The position numbers were made by a program, and so were the translations under genes. Shown in pieces: positions 1,862 through 12,906 of a stretch of DNA of 64,000 bases (position 1 is its first letter; each line of letters begins with the position of its first letter). The notes beneath the pieces were generated by a model. It ran no database searches, was not told the DNA's origin, and was given only the letters and a program-made list of their open reading frames with translations. Source of the stretch: an uncultured Nitrososphaerales archaeon (lineage in GTDB: Archaea > Thermoproteota > Nitrososphaeria > Nitrososphaerales > Nitrososphaeraceae); NCBI GenBank assembly GCA_963713605.1, contig CAVQMO010000001.1, positions 896,001 to 960,000 on the forward strand, in the 5' to 3' direction.

Positions 1862-2793
1862 TTACCAGTTACCGCCAAACCCAAATTCGCCTAAATCCAA
1901 CCATTCTTGCTTTATAATTGTCCAAATGTCGTCTGCAGAGGTGCATCTGCGTTTTCTTGCTTTACAAAGTACTTCATTGGGATCCACCCGTACCCTCGCT
2001 CTCCCCAATTTGTTCCCCAAGAGTTCTTGAATAGAAATGCTCCACCTTCGCCCTTTTTCTCGTCATATCCAACTATAGTAACAGCGTGACCACCTTGCAC
2101 TGATTCGGTTGGTTTAGGATAAGGAACGAAACCGCCGTTACCGGCTGCCTCCTCGAATGAGTCAAATACCGTGAAACCCATTCCAAGGCAGAATCCCTTT
2201 CCCAAATATTCTTTCATCCTTGTAGTCAGCTGATCATTCGACGGAATTCCTTTGTCCAATCTAAAGTATTTAGTGACTTGAAAGGATTGAGCGAAACCGG
2301 CGTTAAGTACATCAGGTGTATCGTCGAATTTTGAAACATCATACGGATAGTATTCTTCTGGAGGAGCGCCATAAACTACTAAAGCACCTAATGCGCTTCT
2401 AATGTATGCACCAGTATCTCCTGTCAGGTGGAGGAGCCAACGGGTCGTCTTATAAATGAAGAGCCGCGACAATTCCACGTAACTGCTTTTCCCCCGTTTG
2501 CTCATGTATTCGTACATATTTAGCAGCCATATTTGCGGTGCAGCTACCCAATTGACCTTGATCTTTAACTGGAGAACAATAGTTGCGATTGTCAACTTTA
2601 ACTGGAAGTCTCTTTGCTTTAAATGTCTTGTCTTTAGTTTGCAACAGAGACTTGATTCTAGTATCTTTTTGACCGCTAGTTGATCTCGCTTCTATTATTA
2701 CTTCCTTTCCACGTCGCTGGGTCCATAGTCTTTTATGGAAGGATAGTCCTTCAGCCAACCAAATCTTTTGATCTTGTATCCGAAATCGGGCAT
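1862..2793 (-). CDS. Papain-family (C1) cysteine peptidase, frameshifted
   Basis: Motifs DQGQLGSCTAN (catalytic Cys), GGHAVTIVGYD (His) and FKNSWGTNWGERGYGW (Asn) are split over ORFs 2450..2971 and 1912..2595. The N-terminus reads MPDFGYKIKRFGWLKDYP. Confidence 0.9.
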
Positions 2794-3085
2794 GATTGCA
2801 ATTAATTGTTATAACCTTTAAGTATTCCCAAGGAATTGACTTTAGTAAATGACAGATCAGAATCTCGCCTATTAATTGTGAATACGAAACTGCAAACATT
2901 ATGTCTTTACTGCTATCTAAATTGCCTCTATATCGGTACACTTTCACCGAGCCTGCACCTAAGATCGGCATCCAATGTCAATATAGGGTTAGTGAGTACC
3001 GATAACGACGTAGCTTGGACCAAATACTGATTGAAAACCTTTTCAAATTTTGGTACATGGCCCATGGCTCAAGGTTCGTTAACGC

Positions 3086-4438
3086 CTACATAAACCGAAT
3101 GGGTTGATTTTCATAATCATTTTCATTCTGAGTGTCTTTTAAGAAAATGTCTTCTCCGGGAAACGCTTGGCCTTCGTTGTTTGGTGGGACAAAGAAAAGA
3201 CCACAACCGCGGACGAGAAGCATCCTCGCGCTCCCTGGAATTGGATTTTCCGGATCTCCACCGAAGTTTGCCCTGCCTAGTCCATATTGTAATATCCGGT
3301 ATAAGCGTTCAGTATCGCTCTGGAAACTTACAAAGTTTAATCCGGCACAAAAATAAGGGTAACGTTCTGCAGGTTCGAGGAACTCATAACCCTGCCTAAA
3401 AATGAGATCTGAGGCAGTCCTTTTGCCGTCCTTACCATAAGCCTTAAGCATGCGACCTACATGGCTATCCTCTAAAATCATGTTGGTGCTGTTGCTGTTG
3501 CAATTCTCTTCCGGATAAGAGCGAAAGGACTTGTTTCTATCATCGGTTATTTCATATGTCCCCTCAACAGGACAGCCCATAACCGGGATGTTCCTATCAT
3601 TCTCATCTATTCCAATTATGGGACAACCCGTAGACTTGACTCTGCCCACCAACCTTTCCTGCTGTTTCACTGGGATTGCTTCCCAAGCGCTCAAATCAAT
3701 GGCCATTCTTATATAGGCCATGTAGGTGCCGTTTATGGTCCAATATTCTGCAGGATCCGCTTTTTCCTTGCCTATCGTTATCGCCGACGTACGTTCAGAG
3801 CTTTCAATATTGGAGATGCCGTCATGAAATCCCAACCAACTTCGTTTGTCAGGACGGCTAAATCCGGTATGAAACGATCTCATTACAACAGGAGCGCAGG
3901 CTGTATCTCTCTCAAGCTTCCTTAACGTTTTCCAAGTCTCTACCACTGCTCTATGAGTCGATAATTGGCTATCACCAATAAACTGGATGATGAAATGGTC
4001 GTTTGCAATTTCATTGCGAGCGACATCATCAGCATATTTTAGACCAGTATCTCCGAGAATTGGGCCGCCACCTACCGTAGGCTCGCGGAACAACCATTGT
4101 CCTGCTAGATAACTCGGTTTTGTCCTTTTAATTCCATCAATCTCAAATGTCTTCGGACCAAAACCAATAAGGACAGATAGGTTCCCACTATAGAGGTGAT
4201 TTCCATCAAAGTTAAGACCATCAATAATCCCCTCTTGCAGTTTCAAATATGTATTCCATAGAGCTGACAAAGTGTTCCTAATCTTCGCAGGATGGTGCTG
4301 GTCAGTTGATCTAAGAAAAACAACTGCGAACGAATTGCCAGGTTCATTTCCCTCAGAGTAATATATGCCCTGTTGAAGCCTTCCAGACATTAATGATCCT
4401 TCTAATGTTTCTTGATTTATAAACTCCACCCCGGGCAA
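3086..4438 (-). CDS. Dye-decolorising (DyP-type) heme peroxidase
   Basis: GFHDGISN (GXXDG motif), GTYMAYIRM, QERLVGRVK, SHVGR (proximal His), IFRQGY (distal Arg) and GLNFVSFQ. Confidence 0.88.
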   Translation of the reverse strand: MPGVEFINQETLEGSLMSGRLQQGIYYSEGNEPGNSFAVVFLRSTDQHHPAKIRNTLSALWNTYLKLQEGIIDGLNFDGNHLYSGNLSVLIGFGPKTFEIDGIKRTKPSYLAGQWLFREPTVGGGPILGDTGLKYADDVARNEIANDHFIIQFIGDSQLSTHRAVVETWKTLRKLERDTACAPVVMRSFHTGFSRPDKRSWLGFHDGISNIESSERTSAITIGKEKADPAEYWTINGTYMAYIRMAIDLSAWEAIPVKQQERLVGRVKSTGCPIIGIDENDRNIPVMGCPVEGTYEITDDRNKSFRSYPEENCNSNSTNMILEDSHVGRMLKAYGKDGKRTASDLIFRQGYEFLEPAERYPYFCAGLNFVSFQSDTERLYRILQYGLGRANFGGDPENPIPGSARMLLVRGCGLFFVPPNNEGQAFPGEDIFLKDTQNENDYENQPIRFM

Positions 4439-4506: not shown

Positions 4507-5869
4507 TCATTTAGACGGCCGATTTACCTTTGATGCCTTTTCTTTTTCCTTCAAAACGAATCTTATGTACTCCTCCAGTTCCTCTCCTTCTAGCGCCGGC
4601 TGAATTCCGCTATTTTCTTCTCACTCGCTAGCCAGTCTTTTTGTAGTCGTCTTGACCTTATTTTCTATTTGCTGTTGCATTTGAGAATTTCCAATTCTCG
4701 ACATAAATCTTAACTCTTTTTCTACGGAGTTATGAATTGAAGATCTAAGTTTATGGTCAAATGAAACGGAGATTGCAGAACTATAAATGCCTATCAACAG
4801 TAGATATGAAGAAATACCAAAAAATGATAGCGTAAGAAGACCGAACGGAGGGTATGGGAGCATGAAAATTCCAGTATCAGGACTCGAGATGGAAAGAAGT
4901 ATTATTCCAAAAGCAGATAACCTCAAATAGTAGCGAATTTTCTCGTCTTGGAGGGTGCTTGATATCTTCCAAAATGCTACACCAAATAGTATTCCTCCAA
5001 TAGATCGTGTCAGTACTAGATTTATTACATTAAAGGTGTAACTCTGAATGGCATTTAGGATTTCATACTGAGCGAATATAATTGATATTATAAATTGAAA
5101 TACACCAAAATAATATGCTAGAGGAATAGCGACAATTAGCCAGAATTTAATAGCACTCCATTTTCTTCTTGTCTGATTTAATAATAGTACCTGAGGCTAC
5201 CCAAAGAGAAACAAATGACGCTGCTGACACATATGATTGAAATTCCTTGAATGAAAAGTTTGTAATATTTGGAGTCGATACAGCGATTCTGGATGAATCA
5301 ATAATGCTGCGGTTGTATTTCATTTCTGACAATATAAGGGTTGCTAAAAATACGGAACCCATAGTGATCATTATCATAGTAACGGCGTATGCAAACACAA
5401 TCCGGTCTCTACCGTATTTGAGCCAAATTATGAATCGAAATGCGAGTATCCCAGTGAGACATGTAGAAAGAAAGACGCTCAGTAATATTGGGATTGTCAC
5501 TGTTAAGGAGTTATATTCATTTAGAACTTCCGTTTGTACAATTACAGAAAGTAGAAAAGCGATTATGACAAGTTGAATTACTAATACCCCGATATACGTG
5601 ATCTTCGTATCTTTTTTAAGATTTCGCAAGTTTGAATTCAGGGTAAGACTTGCTCTAATTATACTTAAAAAAAGCAATTGACACAGAATACACGTCAAAA
5701 CCTGCAACACGAAGAAGAAGTGAACGGGAAAAGAATTTTGTGCCCGAAGATCATAGAATGGAAGATGAGGTAAAATTCCATCTACTAGTAATAGAATTAC
5801 AACTACCACAGTGAGAATTGACGCGGTTGTAGTTTTTGAGTGTAGATTTATCGTATTTTGAATATCCAT
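4507..5869 (-). CDS. Multi-pass membrane protein (roughly 9-10 TM) with charged helical C-terminal tail; frameshifted
   Basis: ORFs 5147..5869 and 4621..4926 join through a hydrophobic frame (FWLIVAIPLAYYFG...GGILFGVAFWKI). The tail ENSGIQPALEGEELEEYIRFVLKEK continues in frame past a TGA at 4621. Confidence 0.75.
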
Positions 5870-6167
5870 TCCTGACGAAGTATCTTGTTTTTATGTGATG
5901 AAGATACATAAATGTATTAACAGCATACCACCAAATGTTTGAATAATCATCTGCGAAGCGATTGAACAGGTTTGGCGGAGAATTAAAACACAGTATGAAA
6001 ATATACTTTGTATCGTCGGCAGAAAGACTGTTCTGTGATTTTCTTTACGGTTCAAAAGAACGTGGATCCTGTTGAGTCTTGAGTACCTTAACAGGCTCGA
6101 CTCACAGCAAGACAGTTCAAAATAGTCCCAATTTCTGTTTTAATAGTCCTACCTACTACCTACTAAG

Positions 6168-6174
6168 TTTAAAT
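6168..6174 (+). promoter_or_regulatory. Putative archaeal TATA box (leaderless transcript)
   Basis: TTTAAAT lies 23-29 nt upstream of the ATG at 6197. Confidence 0.45.
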
Positions 6175-6196
6175 CATAGCTCTTAGAATTGAACCT

Positions 6197-6964
6197 ATGA
6201 GCTTGCTTCAACTCGCCGCGCCATTTTTGACTGTGATTCCTTTAGTCTTTGCCTCCTTAATGTTAATCCCACTTGAAAGTTCCGCGAGCTCTCAAAGCAC
6301 AGAGCCACGCTTCTTTCCAGTTAAATCGTCCCCCTATGGTACTCCATTTCAAGAATGGACCCAAAAGTGGTGGCAATGGTATCTATCAGTTCCAAAGCAA
6401 AATAATCACAACTTTGAAGCAGTATCGGGTTACGTCCCCAAGGAGTGCTCATTTTTACAGAACGCTTCGAGCCCTGTTTTCTTCGTTCCCTATGTATTGC
6501 GAGAAAAAGGAGTTCAGGCAACGGCATCTTGCGAGATTCCTCCTAATAAGGCTGTGATGGTCGGAATTGATAATGGCTTAATGGATTATGGAGATTCTAG
6601 AGTTGAGGAGCCTAAAACAGTTGAAAAGATCACCGAGATGGTGAAAAAGAGTAATGAGTTTCCTGTGGAGTTTGATGTTACCTTGGACGGAAAACCAATT
6701 AATTTGACCAATGAGGAAAAAGATAGGGTTACATCAGCACCGTTTTACATAGTGTTACCTGAGAACAATATCTGGAACGAGGCTCCAAACACACCTTATA
6801 CTGCAGTCGCTGACGGATGGTATTTGCTCCTTGAGCCCCTTTCTCCGGGTAAACACGTTTTGGATTATACTACTGGATATAAGGTTCAACCTTCCCCGGT
6901 TGGACCAGCCAATCCGGAAGGTTACACACAAGAAGTAACGTACAATTTGTTGGTCGGGGAGTAG
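6197..6964 (+). CDS. Exported Trp-rich protein of unknown function, paralogue 1
   Basis: Hydrophobic signal peptide; motifs SPYGTPFQEWTQKWWQW, AVADGWYLLLEPLSPGKH and EVTYNL. Confidence 0.8.
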   Translation: MSLLQLAAPFLTVIPLVFASLMLIPLESSASSQSTEPRFFPVKSSPYGTPFQEWTQKWWQWYLSVPKQNNHNFEAVSGYVPKECSFLQNASSPVFFVPYVLREKGVQATASCEIPPNKAVMVGIDNGLMDYGDSRVEEPKTVEKITEMVKKSNEFPVEFDVTLDGKPINLTNEEKDRVTSAPFYIVLPENNIWNEAPNTPYTAVADGWYLLLEPLSPGKHVLDYTTGYKVQPSPVGPANPEGYTQEVTYNLLVGE

Positions 6965-7260
6965 AAGTTCAAATCGGGGGTAAACCTCCCTATACCTTGG
7001 ATCAAATTTGCGGATACCTCTTATAATCATGAACCGCTGGCTACCAAGATTTCAGTTTTACCTATTGGTATGTTCTTTCTCAATTCAACCCTTTCGTAGG
7101 CAAGGCAAACAGCTGCATGGCCAAGTACCAGAATTTAAGCCCATCTGCTGAGAGGGCAGAAATATTTTTAAACTGCGGTCGAGGTGTCCTATTAAGATTG
7201 AGTAATCAGGAGCAGTGTAAACAGTTTCAAAAGGATCTGTTGGACGAAACTAAATCCAAA

Positions 7261-8029
7261 ATGATCTTGAAAAATAGTGAAATTTTTAGAGGAATGAGTT
7301 ATGGTGATTACCTTCGGGAATGGTTAATTTGGTTACATTCCGACTCTCCTATTTATCGTGGGCATAGGCATGAGATTTGTTATGCTCATGGAAACTTGAG
7401 ACTTTATATACGACAGGGAGACAGGTCGGAGGAAGCAGGCTGATCTCTTTCGGAACAGAGCTCGAAGTGAGAAAATCTTTAGGGGAGATGTTATTTTCGA
7501 GGACACACCAGTATTTGTCCCTGCACGAAGCACTTTTTACAGCGTTGGAGAGGTATATTATCAGGACAATAGGAAGTTGGAAGGCATTGCCGACTGTCAG
7601 TACCTATGCAGAAGAGATCAGCACGAGGGAGGTACTTTCTGGTGCACAATTCGTAAGGACGGGTGTGATGAAGTTGATCTGACCGGCCTTCTCAGTTATA
7701 TTGAAACCCCCTCCTTTGAAATGAGAGTGGCCGAAAAAAGTCCGCTTAGAGATTACTTTGAGATGCCTATCAAGCCTGGCACTTATCCCACATTCTCTGC
7801 GGCAAGAGCCTTGATGATAAAGCGTTTGCCCGAGGGGAAATATCGATTACATTACGGAGGATATGGACGAGGGAGGTATTTCAGCGACTCCGTCTACGAC
7901 TTTATAGTCAAACCCGTCGAAATTGAAGAAGCTATAGATTCAAAGATACGAAGTGAAATAATGTATCCTAAGCATATTGCCGGAATTCCAATCTATGATA
8001 AAGAAAAGCACAAGCTAGATGATCTGTAG
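7261..8029 (+). CDS. Trp-rich family paralogue 2 (divergent); one frameshift near 7400
   Basis: FRGMSYGDYLREWLIWL at the N-terminus and ALMIKRLPEGKYRLHYGG...SDSVYDFIV at the C-terminus. The intervening frame is open. An upstream start at 7117 is also possible. Confidence 0.65.
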
Positions 8030-8094
8030 AGGAAAAATTATCTGCATCATCAAATCTTCAAATATTCTATTATATCGAAAGTAGGCATAACTAC

Positions 8095-8736
8095 TTGTAT
8101 TCTAGACAATCACTGTTATATAGTAAGGAATCTAGCCCTCTTGGAAGAACTTGGGAAGAATGGGTCGAGACGTGGTGGAATTGGTGCTATGCAGAACCGG
8201 AGGCGCTATCTCCGGCTGCAGACACTTCGGGAGCTCTGGCAGGCAAGAACCAAAACGTTCCTAGTGTATGGTTTCTAGCGGGTACTTTTGGAGGAAAGGC
8301 TGAACGCCACTGTATCATTCCAAAAGGAAGATCGATCCTTGTCCCTCTCGTAAACGATTTGATATCTTTCGCGGAATACCGCAACCTCAAAAGTGAAGAA
8401 GAGCTTCGCTCGTACGCGAAAGATGATCTCGATACGACCTCTGTGATAAAAGCCAGTATAGATAAAAATTATTTACGAAATTTAAAAAATTATCGAGTCA
8501 TATCTCGTTCTTTCCATTTGGTTATCCCACTAAATGTCCACGGTAAATTGAGTTTGGCGCATACTAAGGCCGTTTCGGATGGCTATTGGCTCTTTCTTAA
8601 ACCACTTCCTCCTGGACAGCATGTTATTATCATTAGCGGCGAAAAGTCGCTATATGACGACGTTCAGTATGAAGGTTATCGGGGGGAAGACGGCAGGTTC
8701 AAGACCGATGTTATCTACCATGCCACAATAGGATAA
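8095..8736 (+). CDS. Trp-rich family paralogue 3, no signal peptide
   Basis: SPLGRTWEEWVETWWNW, VWFLAGTFGG, CIIPKGRSILVPLVN and AVSDGYWLFLKPLPPGQH. Confidence 0.8.
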   Translation: MYSRQSLLYSKESSPLGRTWEEWVETWWNWCYAEPEALSPAADTSGALAGKNQNVPSVWFLAGTFGGKAERHCIIPKGRSILVPLVNDLISFAEYRNLKSEEELRSYAKDDLDTTSVIKASIDKNYLRNLKNYRVISRSFHLVIPLNVHGKLSLAHTKAVSDGYWLFLKPLPPGQHVIIISGEKSLYDDVQYEGYRGEDGRFKTDVIYHATIG

Positions 8737-9380
8737 TCTCATTTTCTCTACGATAGATGTGGTTTCACTCACCACATACTTCAATCAAAAATTGGCTAGT
8801 ATATGAGCCTAAGTTCTCTCTGGTAATACCACTATTATTGCAGTAATCCATAATCTTAAGCCGATCGAGTGAATGCTGTATAAAAATCGGGCTGTTGATC
8901 TGAGGAGACTAAATAGCATTCCCCATCGGTAAGCCCCGAATGCTTCATTTTACGTATTTTCTTAGACCTCAAACCATTGAATGAATTTCTGTTCATGTCA
9001 AATAAGGAGACATTCTCGAATATTTAAGAAATCTAAGGATTCTTACTATTCTGGGTAGTTAAGGCCCGGGCGGCACCCGTTAATTGTGGCCGCCACATGC
9101 TTCGATGGAAGAACTAGCCAACGAAACATTGCCCGTTACTATTTTACAGAACACAATGATAGTTTTTCGCATATATTTCAATTAATAACACTAACTAATA
9201 AGGATTGAACATAAGGAATCTCGATAATTAAAATTTACTCAGTGATTTATACAAATTTAAGGGACCTAACATAGTCCAACATCCTAAGTTATGCAATATC
9301 AAGATAAAAAAGGTAACCTTATCATTTCGATTCGAGCCGGCATATGACCTAAATAGGAGTCGGTTCAATATTCTATCGAT

Positions 9381-9986
9381 TTGTCGCTTGGTTCGTTCCG
9401 GATAACGTCTCCCCAGCAACGACAATACGGCAAGTCCTTGGCTGAATGGTCTATCTGTTGGTGGAAGTGGCTATTAACTATAGAAAGGGAAAGAAATCCT
9501 GTATTTGATATGGTCGGGACCTTTTCGAAATTAAACCAAAGGGAAGAGGTTTTTTTCCTTTGTCAGACTTTTGAGAGGACAGAGGAAGTACCCAAAAGAA
9601 CATTGACGGTCAAATCAGGCACAATTTTCTTGATGCCTCTAATAAACTATATTTCCACTATGCCTAGCGACGGAAGAAATGAAGAAGAGATATCGACGAC
9701 TGCTATGAAGAAGATGGATTCGATCGCAATAATCGAGTTGTCCATCAATCAAATTGGCTTAAGATTAAGCCCGAAGGACTTCAGATTCAGATCTAATGCC
9801 TTTCATGTTTTGCTGCCATCAAGCAACATACTTGACTTGAAGGGCGGTATCGTTACTTGCGTTTCGGACGGCTATTGGATTATGATCGAAGCAATCAGCG
9901 GACCTCTTGAGATTTCTTCGAGCGCGACTTGCTCCTCGGGTAGAACAAAAATTTCGGCCAAATATTTTATTGAAATCCCTCATTAA
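9381..9986 (+). CDS. Trp-rich family paralogue 4, no signal peptide
   Basis: QYGKSLAEWSICWWKW, VFFLCQT, FLMPLINY and CVSDGYWIMIE. Confidence 0.8.
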   Translation: MSLGSFRITSPQQRQYGKSLAEWSICWWKWLLTIERERNPVFDMVGTFSKLNQREEVFFLCQTFERTEEVPKRTLTVKSGTIFLMPLINYISTMPSDGRNEEEISTTAMKKMDSIAIIELSINQIGLRLSPKDFRFRSNAFHVLLPSSNILDLKGGIVTCVSDGYWIMIEAISGPLEISSSATCSSGRTKISAKYFIEIPH

Positions 9987-10076
9987 ATAATTTTTATGTA
10001 TCAAGGTAGACAGCTGAATGCTTGTCTAACCAATAGAAACATAGAAATATCGAACAATCATCAGTTGGATAGATTC

Positions 10077-10244
10077 ATGCCAATCACAGACGCCGCTAAA
10101 AAACAAATCGCTCAACAGAGGAGACTTTTCTTTAAGGTGTGTTTTAAATGCGGTGGAAGGAATCCAATATCTGCACTTAGATGCAGAAAGTGTAGGGGTA
10201 GTCAGCTCAGGTTGAAAAATAGAACGCTAGGGGCTAAGAAATGA
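10077..10244 (+). CDS. rpl40e: 50S ribosomal protein L40e
   Basis: MPITDAAKKQIAQQRRLFFKVCFKCGGRNPISALRCRKCRGSQLRLK; zinc-ribbon L40e pattern. Confidence 0.95.
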   Translation: MPITDAAKKQIAQQRRLFFKVCFKCGGRNPISALRCRKCRGSQLRLKNRTLGAKK

Positions 10245-10398
10245 TCATTCTTGTTAAAGGACTCTATCGCTAAGCTCAAAATAAGGGCAAATCTGAGCTA
10301 CCTATAGATCTGCAACCTTTAGATATGACGGCACGACAGCTACGCTATTATAGTATGAACAGCTATAAGTTGTTAACTGGAGAATGACTTGAGGCAGT

Positions 10399-10782
10399 AT
10401 GTATGAAACTATCGTCAGTCTGTTTTTTAAGAGCATTGAGCCTCTATATAAATGGCTCAGCGAGAATCTAGTGGCACATGTTATGACTTTTGGTAAGGAA
10501 TTTGGTGCCCTGGTAGTATTTGTTTCAGCTGTTGCGTTTCTATTGATTACGGTTTACTTTATTATGAAACAGGCAAAAAGGTTACCCAAGCGTTACGTGC
10601 TTGAGACGTTTGATCATGATGGAAAGAAAGTTGTGATCCCGGATTTGAGAATTGTGTTTAGTACGTACCAAGTTGCTGCGAGTTACGCCGAATTCTATAC
10701 AAAGATGTATGAATACAAGTATAAGTTTAGGTTGCTTGGAATAAGAGACAGCATTTCAGTTCTTGGACGTCTAAATAAATAG
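10399..10782 (+). CDS. Hypothetical single-TM protein
   Basis: 127-aa ORF with one hydrophobic helix (FGALVVFVSAVAFLLITVYFIM). Confidence 0.65.
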   Translation: MYETIVSLFFKSIEPLYKWLSENLVAHVMTFGKEFGALVVFVSAVAFLLITVYFIMKQAKRLPKRYVLETFDHDGKKVVIPDLRIVFSTYQVAASYAEFYTKMYEYKYKFRLLGIRDSISVLGRLNK

Positions 10783-11180
10783 CTAGTTTCATTCTATTGA
10801 CGTGCCGAAAAATGACCGTGACTCTCAAACACCGGATCTAGTGAAAATCGGCTTCCTGATGAGAGCATTTAGAGGCCGACGTGATTAGTGTTTCATAATG
10901 GTACAAGAGTGGAAATATTTACCTAGTTATTCACCACATTTTGAAACAATTCAGAATAGTTCAGAAATCCTTTGGAATGGGCGAGATAGGAGATTCATAA
11001 AGACTATACTAGTTGTGGCTGGTTTGATACGAAAAAATCTTTAGAATCATATCACTCGACCCTCTTGTCCACCAGAATCTGGAGTATCGGCATGAAATTT
11101 TTCACGAATCTAAATTAAATTAAAAAAGTTAATATCTATGCCAATGAAATGGATATGCTTAGGGATCGTAATAACACTTT

Positions 11181-12906
11181 ATGAAATATCCAAAGGTCGT
11201 ACTTACTGCAGATAGAACACTTATGTCACCTTACAGAGGCATATCTTTAGCATCATTCTTTGGCTGTGCTCCAGCTATTGACGTCAATAGAGATCCATCC
11301 TCACTCTTGTACAAGATACTCGGCCAACAGATAACGCCGAGGATACTCTTTGATTTCATCTGTAACCCGATTGAGAATATTAATGGAGTGGCAAAATATG
11401 CACCATATGGTCTAAGGAAGGTTGAGTCTTCTCTCATCAGGGATGGTTACAGCAGGGATGATGTAGTTGTGGCCCACCCCGATTATGTTGAAAAATTTAT
11501 AGGGCCTGAAACTCAGGTCGTCGGTACGTACGAAATGGACCCACTTGGAATGGGTCCGGTCACGATGACCTTTACATACGGACGCAAACACATGTCCTAT
11601 GACGAATTTTATTGCAGAGATTTGCATCAGCGAATCTCCAAAGCAAAAAAAGAGAATGGAAGTAATGCAAAGGTCATAGTAGGAGCATCAGGAACATGGC
11701 AGTACAACTATGATCCTGCCAAGATTGAAGAATATGGACTCTACGCCTTAGTTGAGGGAGATCTTGGAGGCATAGGCCCGGAAATAGATGGAGCAGGTGC
11801 TAGCTTCTTTGATGCTGCGATAGCCGGGGATTTTGAAACTGCAAATCCATTCAAGAAATCCAAGTTCAAAGTTGAAATTAAAGAGTACAGATCGACCTGA
11901 GCGAAAATATCATGGCCGATTTATCCATTATTGGGATGAGCCATCCGTAGATGAAATCCCTGACATTATAAATCCTAGTATGCACGGGATGGTTGAGGTG
12001 ATGCGAGGCTGTGGGAGAGGATGCAAATTCTGCGACGTTACCCTAAGACCATTGAGATATTACCCTGTTGAAAAAGTACAAAGGGAAATTCAAGTAAACA
12101 TGAAGTACGGTGGAGCTAAAAGCGCATGGATCCATAGCGATGACATTTTTGTCTACGGTTTGAACCCTAGGACTACAAAGAATATGGAGCCAAATAGAGA
12201 AGCTCTAGAAGAGCTCTTCAATGGCATTATGGATACAGGAATTGAGCATACTAACCCTACCCACGGTACGCTTGCAGGCGCAATTGCCAATGAAAGACTC
12301 CTTCCAAATATTTCCGAGATTATAAAATCTGGTCCTGAAAATCATATTGGAATTCAATGCGGTCTTGAAACTGGTAGTACGCGGTTAATTGGAAAATATG
12401 CTGACCGAAAGTTAGCCCCGTTCAAACCAAATGAATGGCATTGGGTTGTAAAACACGGGGTCAAGACATTGAACCAGCACTACTGGGTGCCTGCATTTAC
12501 ATTGATATTGGGTCTGAATAATGACGAGACCCCTGAAGATAGCTGGGAAACTATTCAGTTAATACATGAATTAGAAACGGAACAGCCTGACTCAAAATTT
12601 ACGGTTACACCATTGACGTTTGTCCCAATCGGACTGTTAGAGAAATCTGAATTCTTTGACATTAACAATACAATGGATCCACCGAAGTTGGGAGTAATGT
12701 ACAAAACATGGCAGCATAATTTTAAATACGGTATTCAAAAATTCATGCGAAAAATTGGACGACAGGCTCCTGTGAAGAATTTGTTCTTTGCGGGTTTAGC
12801 GAGATCCTTAGGAGGTGTTCCGTTGAATGCAATGGAAAGATTTGCCAGAAGAAAAGGTCGCGAGCATGAATTAGTTATAGAAAAGATAAAGGCAAGCTAT
12901 TGGTGA
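11181..12906 (+). CDS. Radical SAM protein with B12-binding-like N-terminal region; frameshift near 11890
   Basis: APYGLRKVE motif and EVMRGCGRGCKFC (CxxxCxxC), in two overlapping ORFs. Confidence 0.88.

Follow-up and report, generated by a model that had tools for sequence, protein, structure and literature searches.

Within a 64,000-nucleotide stretch (hereafter the window) from an uncultured Nitrososphaerales archaeon of the family Nitrososphaeraceae (assembly GCA_963713605.1, contig CAVQMO010000001.1, positions 896,001 to 960,000), we describe a gene cassette that probably makes and senses a small secreted peptide signal. The cassette combines genes of two families, for which we use the working names W (soluble beta-sandwich proteins) and M (membrane proteins), with a short precursor-peptide gene. 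We favor, with reasonable though far from complete confidence, an explanation in which cytoplasmic W copies would mature the precursor and an exported W together with M would sense the peptide. This reading builds on gene content, linkage, fusions, co-occurrence, and peptide conservation, which were observed; on folds and localization, which were predicted; and on biochemical steps that we infer. The window's assembly is 4.1 Mb with many frameshifts, and its relatives are labeled Nitrososphaeraceae. A first-pass annotation had listed at this locus four co-oriented paralogs, a multi-pass membrane protein lying head-to-head with them, and a DyP peroxidase and then a C1 protease on the membrane gene's strand. 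All of these genes are present in those arrangements, but the 30-codon precursor gene at 9080-9172 (minus strand) had been overlooked. The features, in window coordinates, are:

4507..5869, minus strand: M, ~450 aa with 10 helices, candidate receptor; predicted to consist of three extra helices, a seven-helix core, and a cytoplasmic helical tail
6197..6964, plus strand: open reading frame (ORF) 1, W predicted to be exported, with a hydrophobic N-terminus, head-to-head with M; candidate outside ligand-binding partner
7261..8029, plus strand: ORF2, divergent cytoplasmic W subtype with profile matches; frameshift near 7400
8095..8736, plus strand: ORF3, cytoplasmic W of the subtype that other proteins have joined to the cytoplasmic tail of M; candidate adaptor or output of the receptor tail
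9080..9172, minus strand: precursor peptide, 30 aa, with an amphipathic leader and a tail ending C-G-G-H-N, head-to-head with ORF4
9381..9986, plus strand: ORF4, cytoplasmic W subtype whose C-terminal hairpin has a conserved Cys; candidate maturase or binding subunit for the peptide
3086..4438, minus strand: DyP peroxidase, long-type (Pfam Dyp_perox_C), without a signal peptide; optional cassette member
1912-2971, minus strand: C1 papain-family protease, split by a frameshift; outside the cassette

The precursor belongs to a family of ~35 leader-bearing members found solely beside W genes. These peptides share an amphipathic leader of ~14 residues followed by a variable tail, with Asn or Gln as the last residue in 30/30 and His as the penultimate residue in 27/30. 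Differences at third codon positions exceeded those at second positions in 11/11 close pairs, indicating coding constraint. A profile built from 21 seeds ending in His-Asn retrieved 13 members that had been held out, each from a W locus and ending in HQ, HN, GN, CN, or RN. By W count, the family occurred in 31 of 51 loci with at least two W genes and in 4 of 148 loci with one (one of these hits is likely spurious), and in none of the 37 that had no W; the positives here were mostly seeds, so it is the negatives that carry weight. A TATA-like pattern lay upstream of 17/30 peptides, as judged by a simple, uncontrolled pattern, and scans for Sigma-70 promoters and terminators, whose models are unsuited to archaea, performed at chance.

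The peptide also tracked particular W copies. Flanks of 3.5 kb on either side of M were available for 24 loci. Of these, 15 contained cytoplasmic W and the peptide, 8 contained exported W only and no peptide, and the single discordant locus (L043) carried a frameshifted W. W of the Cys-hairpin (ORF4) type was found at 25/34 peptide loci vs. 7/165 other W loci. Cytoplasmic W thus travels with the peptide (15/15 vs. 0/8), and most inside copies therefore look like part of a peptide-making module rather than a relay. This splits the earlier proposal that a receptor-like M and the inside copies form one trans-membrane sensing or relay module: kinase fusions, a seven-helix core, and seven M-W fusions speak for it, but most inside copies follow the peptide and not the receptor pair. 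Two further observations concern the peptide itself. At L044:11855 onward, a cassette with YcaO, the core-coding stretch is repeated just past the peptide stop as a tandem tail copy. Four small ORFs with a precursor-like leader and no W or M nearby were seen at G000 C3:26748, C3:373607, C12:14237, and C1:34191, two of them ending in aromatic-Asn.

To describe the linkage of W and M, we picked 80 metagenomic loci by M alone, of which 53 had at least 600 bp upstream and 27 were dropped for short flanks. W lay within 1.5 kb in 52/53 of these loci, 45 of them head-to-head, and 40 of the latter had a hydrophobic N-terminus; when M was clustered at 70% identity, the linkage recurred in 27 of 32 clusters. 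The neighborhood comparison proposed in the first-pass annotation therefore came out in favor of a link across Nitrososphaeraceae, and three bacterial W neighborhoods had neither M nor a shared context. Near-full-length M genes numbered 20 in five whole genomes, and 9 of them had W within 0.8 kb, a count that omits seven partial matches. In the window's genome, W-linked M accounted for 5/24 hits (4/23 loci), compared to a random mean of 0.32 and with this level reached in 0/5000 placements; among kinases, used as a control, 0/42 had a W neighbor. M and the facing W co-diverged across 31 pairs (r=0.87, 0/2000 permutations), a correlation that kinship alone can give, and the nearest relatives of ORF1 were W genes facing the M genes nearest to the window's M. 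The W-M link is general across Nitrososphaeraceae but not obligatory. Complex prediction with a cognate M and exported W scored 0.00, which speaks neither way.

M, like W and the peptide, had zero matches in Pfam, NCBIfam, PADLOC, or PDB sequence searches. The model of a full-length homolog 70% identical to the window's M (pLDDT 82) has ten long helices followed by a helical tail, matching the earlier description of a multi-pass protein with such a tail. Residues 119-420 of the model aligned with microbial rhodopsins, adhesion G-protein-coupled receptors (GPCRs), and Ste2 at Z 10.9-12.0 and a root-mean-square deviation (rmsd) of 4.0-4.5 (6ab9, Z 11.7, rmsd 4.3, 224 aligned; 8jmt, Z 11.1; Ste2 7qbc, Z 10.9). 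The nearest Pfam-bearing Atlas cluster was HisKA_7TM (feature score 0.82), which serves as a lead only, and the HisKA_7TM profile (PF16927) did not match M. No retinal-binding Lys was present among positions at least 80% conserved in M's last helix. We rejected M as an inverted-repeat secondary transporter (hhalign internal-repeat probability <0.2% for five splits), and we likewise set aside one source's major facilitator superfamily label on an M relative, P0169, which has no Pfam match.

Some M family members continue past the tail into two unassigned domains followed by HisKA and HATPase, and two such genes occur in the window's genome; the window's own M ends after its helical tail, with no kinase. 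M-histidine kinase fusions were recorded at G000 C5:15939-18470 and C5:87210-90351, the first with EQEEVGH repeated five times within an M loop. In seven database proteins, the M tail is instead fused to an ORF3-type W. Together, the kinase fusions and the modeled seven-helix core support the view that M behaves like a receptor. In the M tree, 25/26 W-less M and 4/5 kinase-fused M fell in one clade (support 0.94), with W-linked M making up the rest. At six loci, M of the W-less clade follows other small signal-bearing ORFs; such ORFs, Asn-rich and preceding W-less M at G000 C5:153608-157415 and C6:30919-34029, L231, and L238, form a second peptide-M pairing. M was not found in plasmid records or, like W, in any of the 117 genomes from the class's other families. 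The frameshift in the window's M at ~5190 is an assembly error, because short-read contigs from 2/4 runs do not contain it. One short-read contig has a loose end at 7402 (9 letters), weakly suggesting that the ORF2 frameshift near 7400 is likewise an assembly error. The M gene also has an in-frame TGA at 4621-4623, which no short-read contig spans. Among data sets that carry the sequence, none of RNA was listed, which says nothing either way about expression, and the top DNA data sets belong to a single study that may itself be the origin of the assembly.

W was present in 34 of 41 genomes of the Nitrososphaeraceae, and its profile reached 9,223 clusters at 50% identity. In the AlphaFold model of ORF3 (pLDDT 94), an elaborated beta-sandwich carries two helices, one of them Trp-rich. 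The closest structural matches were weak, with the cysteine protease inhibitor EhICP2 at Z 5.3 (rmsd 5.4, 102 aligned) tied with immunoglobulin (Ig) domains at Z 4-5. No close fold was listed among 48,161 chains, which does not by itself prove a new fold, and a Foldseek match to Pfs230 (E 1e-4, TM 0.24) was dismissed as meaningless. In bacteria, surface proteins carry a single W or tandem copies alongside Ig, HYR, PKD, dockerin, phytase-like, or GDSL domains; further proteins fuse W to dCache_1, Pterin_4a (P0263, P0275, P0336), or EAD8 (P0270). The domains that W accompanies in bacteria suggest a binding module. Exported W-dCache_1 fusions with no membrane anchor behind them were found in several genera (L006:1348-3108, L014, L020, L011, L015, L018). 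No W was found in phage records. Bacterial plasmids carry single W genes, all hypothetical or unannotated (L132, on a Ralstonia megaplasmid, L131, and L133), and 99 of 117 bacterial plasmid W records were from Ralstonia.

Within the window, ORF1, ORF3, and ORF4 align pairwise at 25-28% identity (E 5e-18, 3e-12, 2e-20). ORF2 had no pairwise match to the other copies, but both of its pieces matched the family profile (E 2e-16; 8e-8), so the paralogy that had been read from shared motifs holds for all four. The further claim that only the first copy has a signal peptide is in line with hydropathy, as the maximum 15-residue value at the N-terminus was 2.59 in ORF1 and 0.02, -0.41, and 0.81 in ORF2-4. 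The copies fell in four separate clades, each shared with other loci (support 0.95-1.0), in agreement with the earlier view that the duplications are old. The ORF2 clade held 21 sequences from other loci (support 0.99), and the ORF4 clade had support 0.998. ORF3 shared a clade (support 0.996) with the W part of the seven M-W fusions, to which it was 40-50% identical, compared to 23-30% for ORF1 and ORF4. Locus L057 has the same W set and DyP in another order, and the closed genome G001 also carries a full cassette. Judging from the tree, the window's W copies are old subtypes and not a local array. Copies preserving only the C-terminal part of W were seen at G000 C2:73791, C3:81841, C3:333978, C10:264013, C10:193858, and C12:127599, and are possibly decayed copies or assembly breaks.

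Two enzymes recur as optional members. DyP was found in 14/101 M-W loci, whose M proteins share 25-65% identity except in two close pairs. Across the 41 genomes, 8/8 long DyPs lay within ~2.5 kb of W (7/7 without G034), while two short DyPs did not; the window's DyP is the sole DyP of its genome. The GxxDG motif, proximal His, and distal Arg are intact and were invariant in 11 cassette DyPs. Peptide tails with Gly-Gly-His (GGH[NQ]) were found at 7/11 DyP loci vs. 1/24 others. YcaO occurred in 5/101 M-W loci, not including the window's cassette (the genome's YcaO is at C1:811009). At YcaO loci, 5/5 precursors had 38-40 residues and an RT[PH]G motif vs. 1/29 elsewhere. The nearest model to the cassette YcaO was TIGR03266, for McrA-glycine thioamidation, under its cut-off. 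The C1 protease, which the first-pass annotation had listed after DyP, recurred in only 1/159 related loci, and we rejected it as a cassette member. Other neighbors were a hydrolase-phosphoribosyltransferase gene beside the cassette in 8/101 M-W loci (e.g., L082:1847-3232, L036:3077-4432) and, in the window's stretch 9996-12906 (plus strand), rpl40e as the cassette boundary and a frameshift-split radical-SAM-like gene (11181-12906), labeled from its CxxxCxxC motif alone.

The peptide-signal explanation would arrange these parts into a sender and a receiver. The sender module would comprise the precursor, ORF2- and ORF4-type W, and optionally DyP or YcaO. The leader may target the precursor to the membrane, where a short C-terminal piece would be released; the precursor could be bound or processed by ORF2- and ORF4-type W and optionally tailored by YcaO or DyP. 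The receiver module would comprise exported W and M, the latter with either a kinase or an ORF3-type W at its tail. Exported W would catch the peptide outside and present it to M, making a binding protein and receptor pair, and the signal would exit via M's cytoplasmic tail, through a kinase module in some members and ORF3-type W in others. Receptor pairs with no peptide gene could be listen-only copies.

Several results weigh against this explanation. Binding, processing, secretion, expression, and output are all presumed from gene evidence, and W has no recognizable catalytic motif and no solved relative. Seeds made up 34 of 35 counted peptides in the second round of the profile, and the p-values for enzyme-tail association are overstated because the loci are kin. 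In 20 loci with at least two W matches the peptide went undetected; several of these loci were short or cut, and one (L048) has six W. Patterns from the metagenome scan favor the window's M subfamily; in the window's genome, most M genes (19/23) have no W neighbor, six genomes have M with no W found, and of 79 loci picked by exported W, 58 were without M. Foldseek returned zero matches for M at E<=0.001, and the tool cautions that, in a helical bundle, a Z of about 11 may reflect only a common arrangement. Kinase-fused M falls mostly in the W-less clade (4/5), and a kinase output of W-linked M is therefore only tentative. Neither an exporter nor a protease recurs as a cassette neighbor, and among regulators a response regulator occurs in 4/101 loci, with nothing beyond it.

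Among other explanations, the peptide could be a ribosomal metal chelator for copper or nickel, with exported W capturing the loaded peptide and M importing or sensing it. Gly-Gly-His is an N-terminal copper site, and ammonia oxidizers have a high copper demand. The near-constant penultimate His, the frequent Cys and Gly-Gly-His tails, and the tailoring enzymes YcaO and DyP would all suit this role, which we regard as unlikely but worth keeping in mind. The tails vary widely, however, three have no His, and neither a metal transporter nor a metal regulator is a recurring neighbor in the 101 loci; moreover, M has kinase fusions and no transporter-type internal repeat.

We give somewhat less credence to a modified antimicrobial peptide, for which M and exported W would be exporter or immunity proteins and solo pairs orphan immunity genes. 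The content does resemble that of clusters for RiPPs (peptides that are ribosomally synthesized and then modified post-translationally), given a leader-bearing precursor and a YcaO nearest, below cut-off, to the thioamidation model, and variable tails and common solo M-W pairs are in line with it. Yet the kinase fusions and seven-helix core suit a receptor better, no ABC exporter recurs, and PADLOC anti-phage profiles matched 0/7 proteins.

Closer to the first-pass proposal would be a small-molecule relay, in which W binds a ligand on both sides of the membrane and M passes it on, the peptide being incidental or serving as a regulatory leader. Fusion of ORF3-type W to M's tail would fit, as would the fusion of W to dCache_1 and its presence on bacterial surface proteins in the manner of a binding module. 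We consider a relay quite improbable, as the peptide tracks cytoplasmic W almost perfectly, varies in orientation and position between loci, is under coding constraint, and has a tail that covaries with the enzymes; the structure of its RNA is unremarkable (z -1.0). Finally, W copies as chagasin-like inhibitors of the adjoining C1 protease in a protease-inhibitor locus could draw on the EhICP2 match and on the protease at 1912-2971, but that match is tied with plain Ig domains and the protease is nearly always missing from related loci, making this very improbable indeed.

If the peptide-signal explanation holds, a precursor, candidate maturases, and a candidate receptor occur together in dominant soil nitrifiers, in a form testable with one soluble protein and a synthetic peptide of a few residues. 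W, a family of 9,223 clusters that lacks both a Pfam model and a close solved fold, would likewise gain a function to test, and the cassette could offer a handle on soil nitrification. Literature searches listed no description of the cassette, W, M, or the peptide, and the supplements of PMC5847659 and PMC13581589 may list M-kinase proteins. According to passages of a 2025 article, intercellular signaling in archaea is little studied, and small molecules are named, not peptides (PMC12240190).

Of the known systems, agrBDCA and comQXPA, as far as partial descriptions allow, resemble the cassette in their short leader-bearing precursor, adjacent maturation genes, polytopic membrane sensor, and variable tails; for comQXPA, the comparison draws on general knowledge of ComX and ComP. 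By contrast, W and M do not match AgrB, ComQ, AgrC, or ComP in Pfam or NCBIfam, no such gene is among the recurring neighbors, and the window's M has no kinase, which is fused only to other M members. The cassette also differs in having an exported binding protein in the sensor, in using one domain family on both sides of the membrane, and in being archaeal. By analogy, the cassette would work like Gram-positive peptide quorum sensing, but has neither the maturase nor the kinase by which such systems are defined.

M itself may resemble the class D GPCR Ste2, adhesion GPCRs, HisKA_7TM kinases, and microbial rhodopsins in its predicted core. Archaeal seven-helix kinase sensors are noted in passages of two papers (PMC13581589; PMC5847659). 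Unlike these receptors, M has three additional N-terminal helices, is only 7-15% identical, and shows no sequence match; it has no conserved Lys in the last helix and belongs to a family in which a coiled tail is joined to a kinase or W. No G protein or arrestin partner is among the recurring neighbors. LuxP-LuxQ is another binding protein and sensor pair, and the likeness lies in an exported, candidate ligand-binding protein (here W) encoded beside and co-diverging with a membrane sensor. W differs in being a beta-sandwich rather than a periplasmic binding protein fold, and its proposed ligand is a peptide.

Thioamitide-type YcaO RiPP clusters share with some cassettes a YcaO beside a leader-bearing precursor, and eight TfuA-YcaO clusters are reported for Thaumarchaeota in one source (PMC8120280). 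In our cassettes, however, YcaO is optional, W and M are the core genes, and TfuA is not among the recurring neighbors. The archaeal precursor also shares its C-terminal His-Asn with the plant hormones RGF, IDA, and CLE, whose diad is described as being read by the RxR motif of leucine-rich repeat receptor kinases (10.1101/692228). Archaeal peptides with this end might conceivably reach plant receptor kinases, or listen-only archaeal pairs might read plant peptides, but we view such cross-talk as a long shot. Unlike the plant hormones, archaeal tails also end in His-Gln or x-Asn, and no precursor or receptor homology was seen; the shared His-Asn is most likely the product of convergence.

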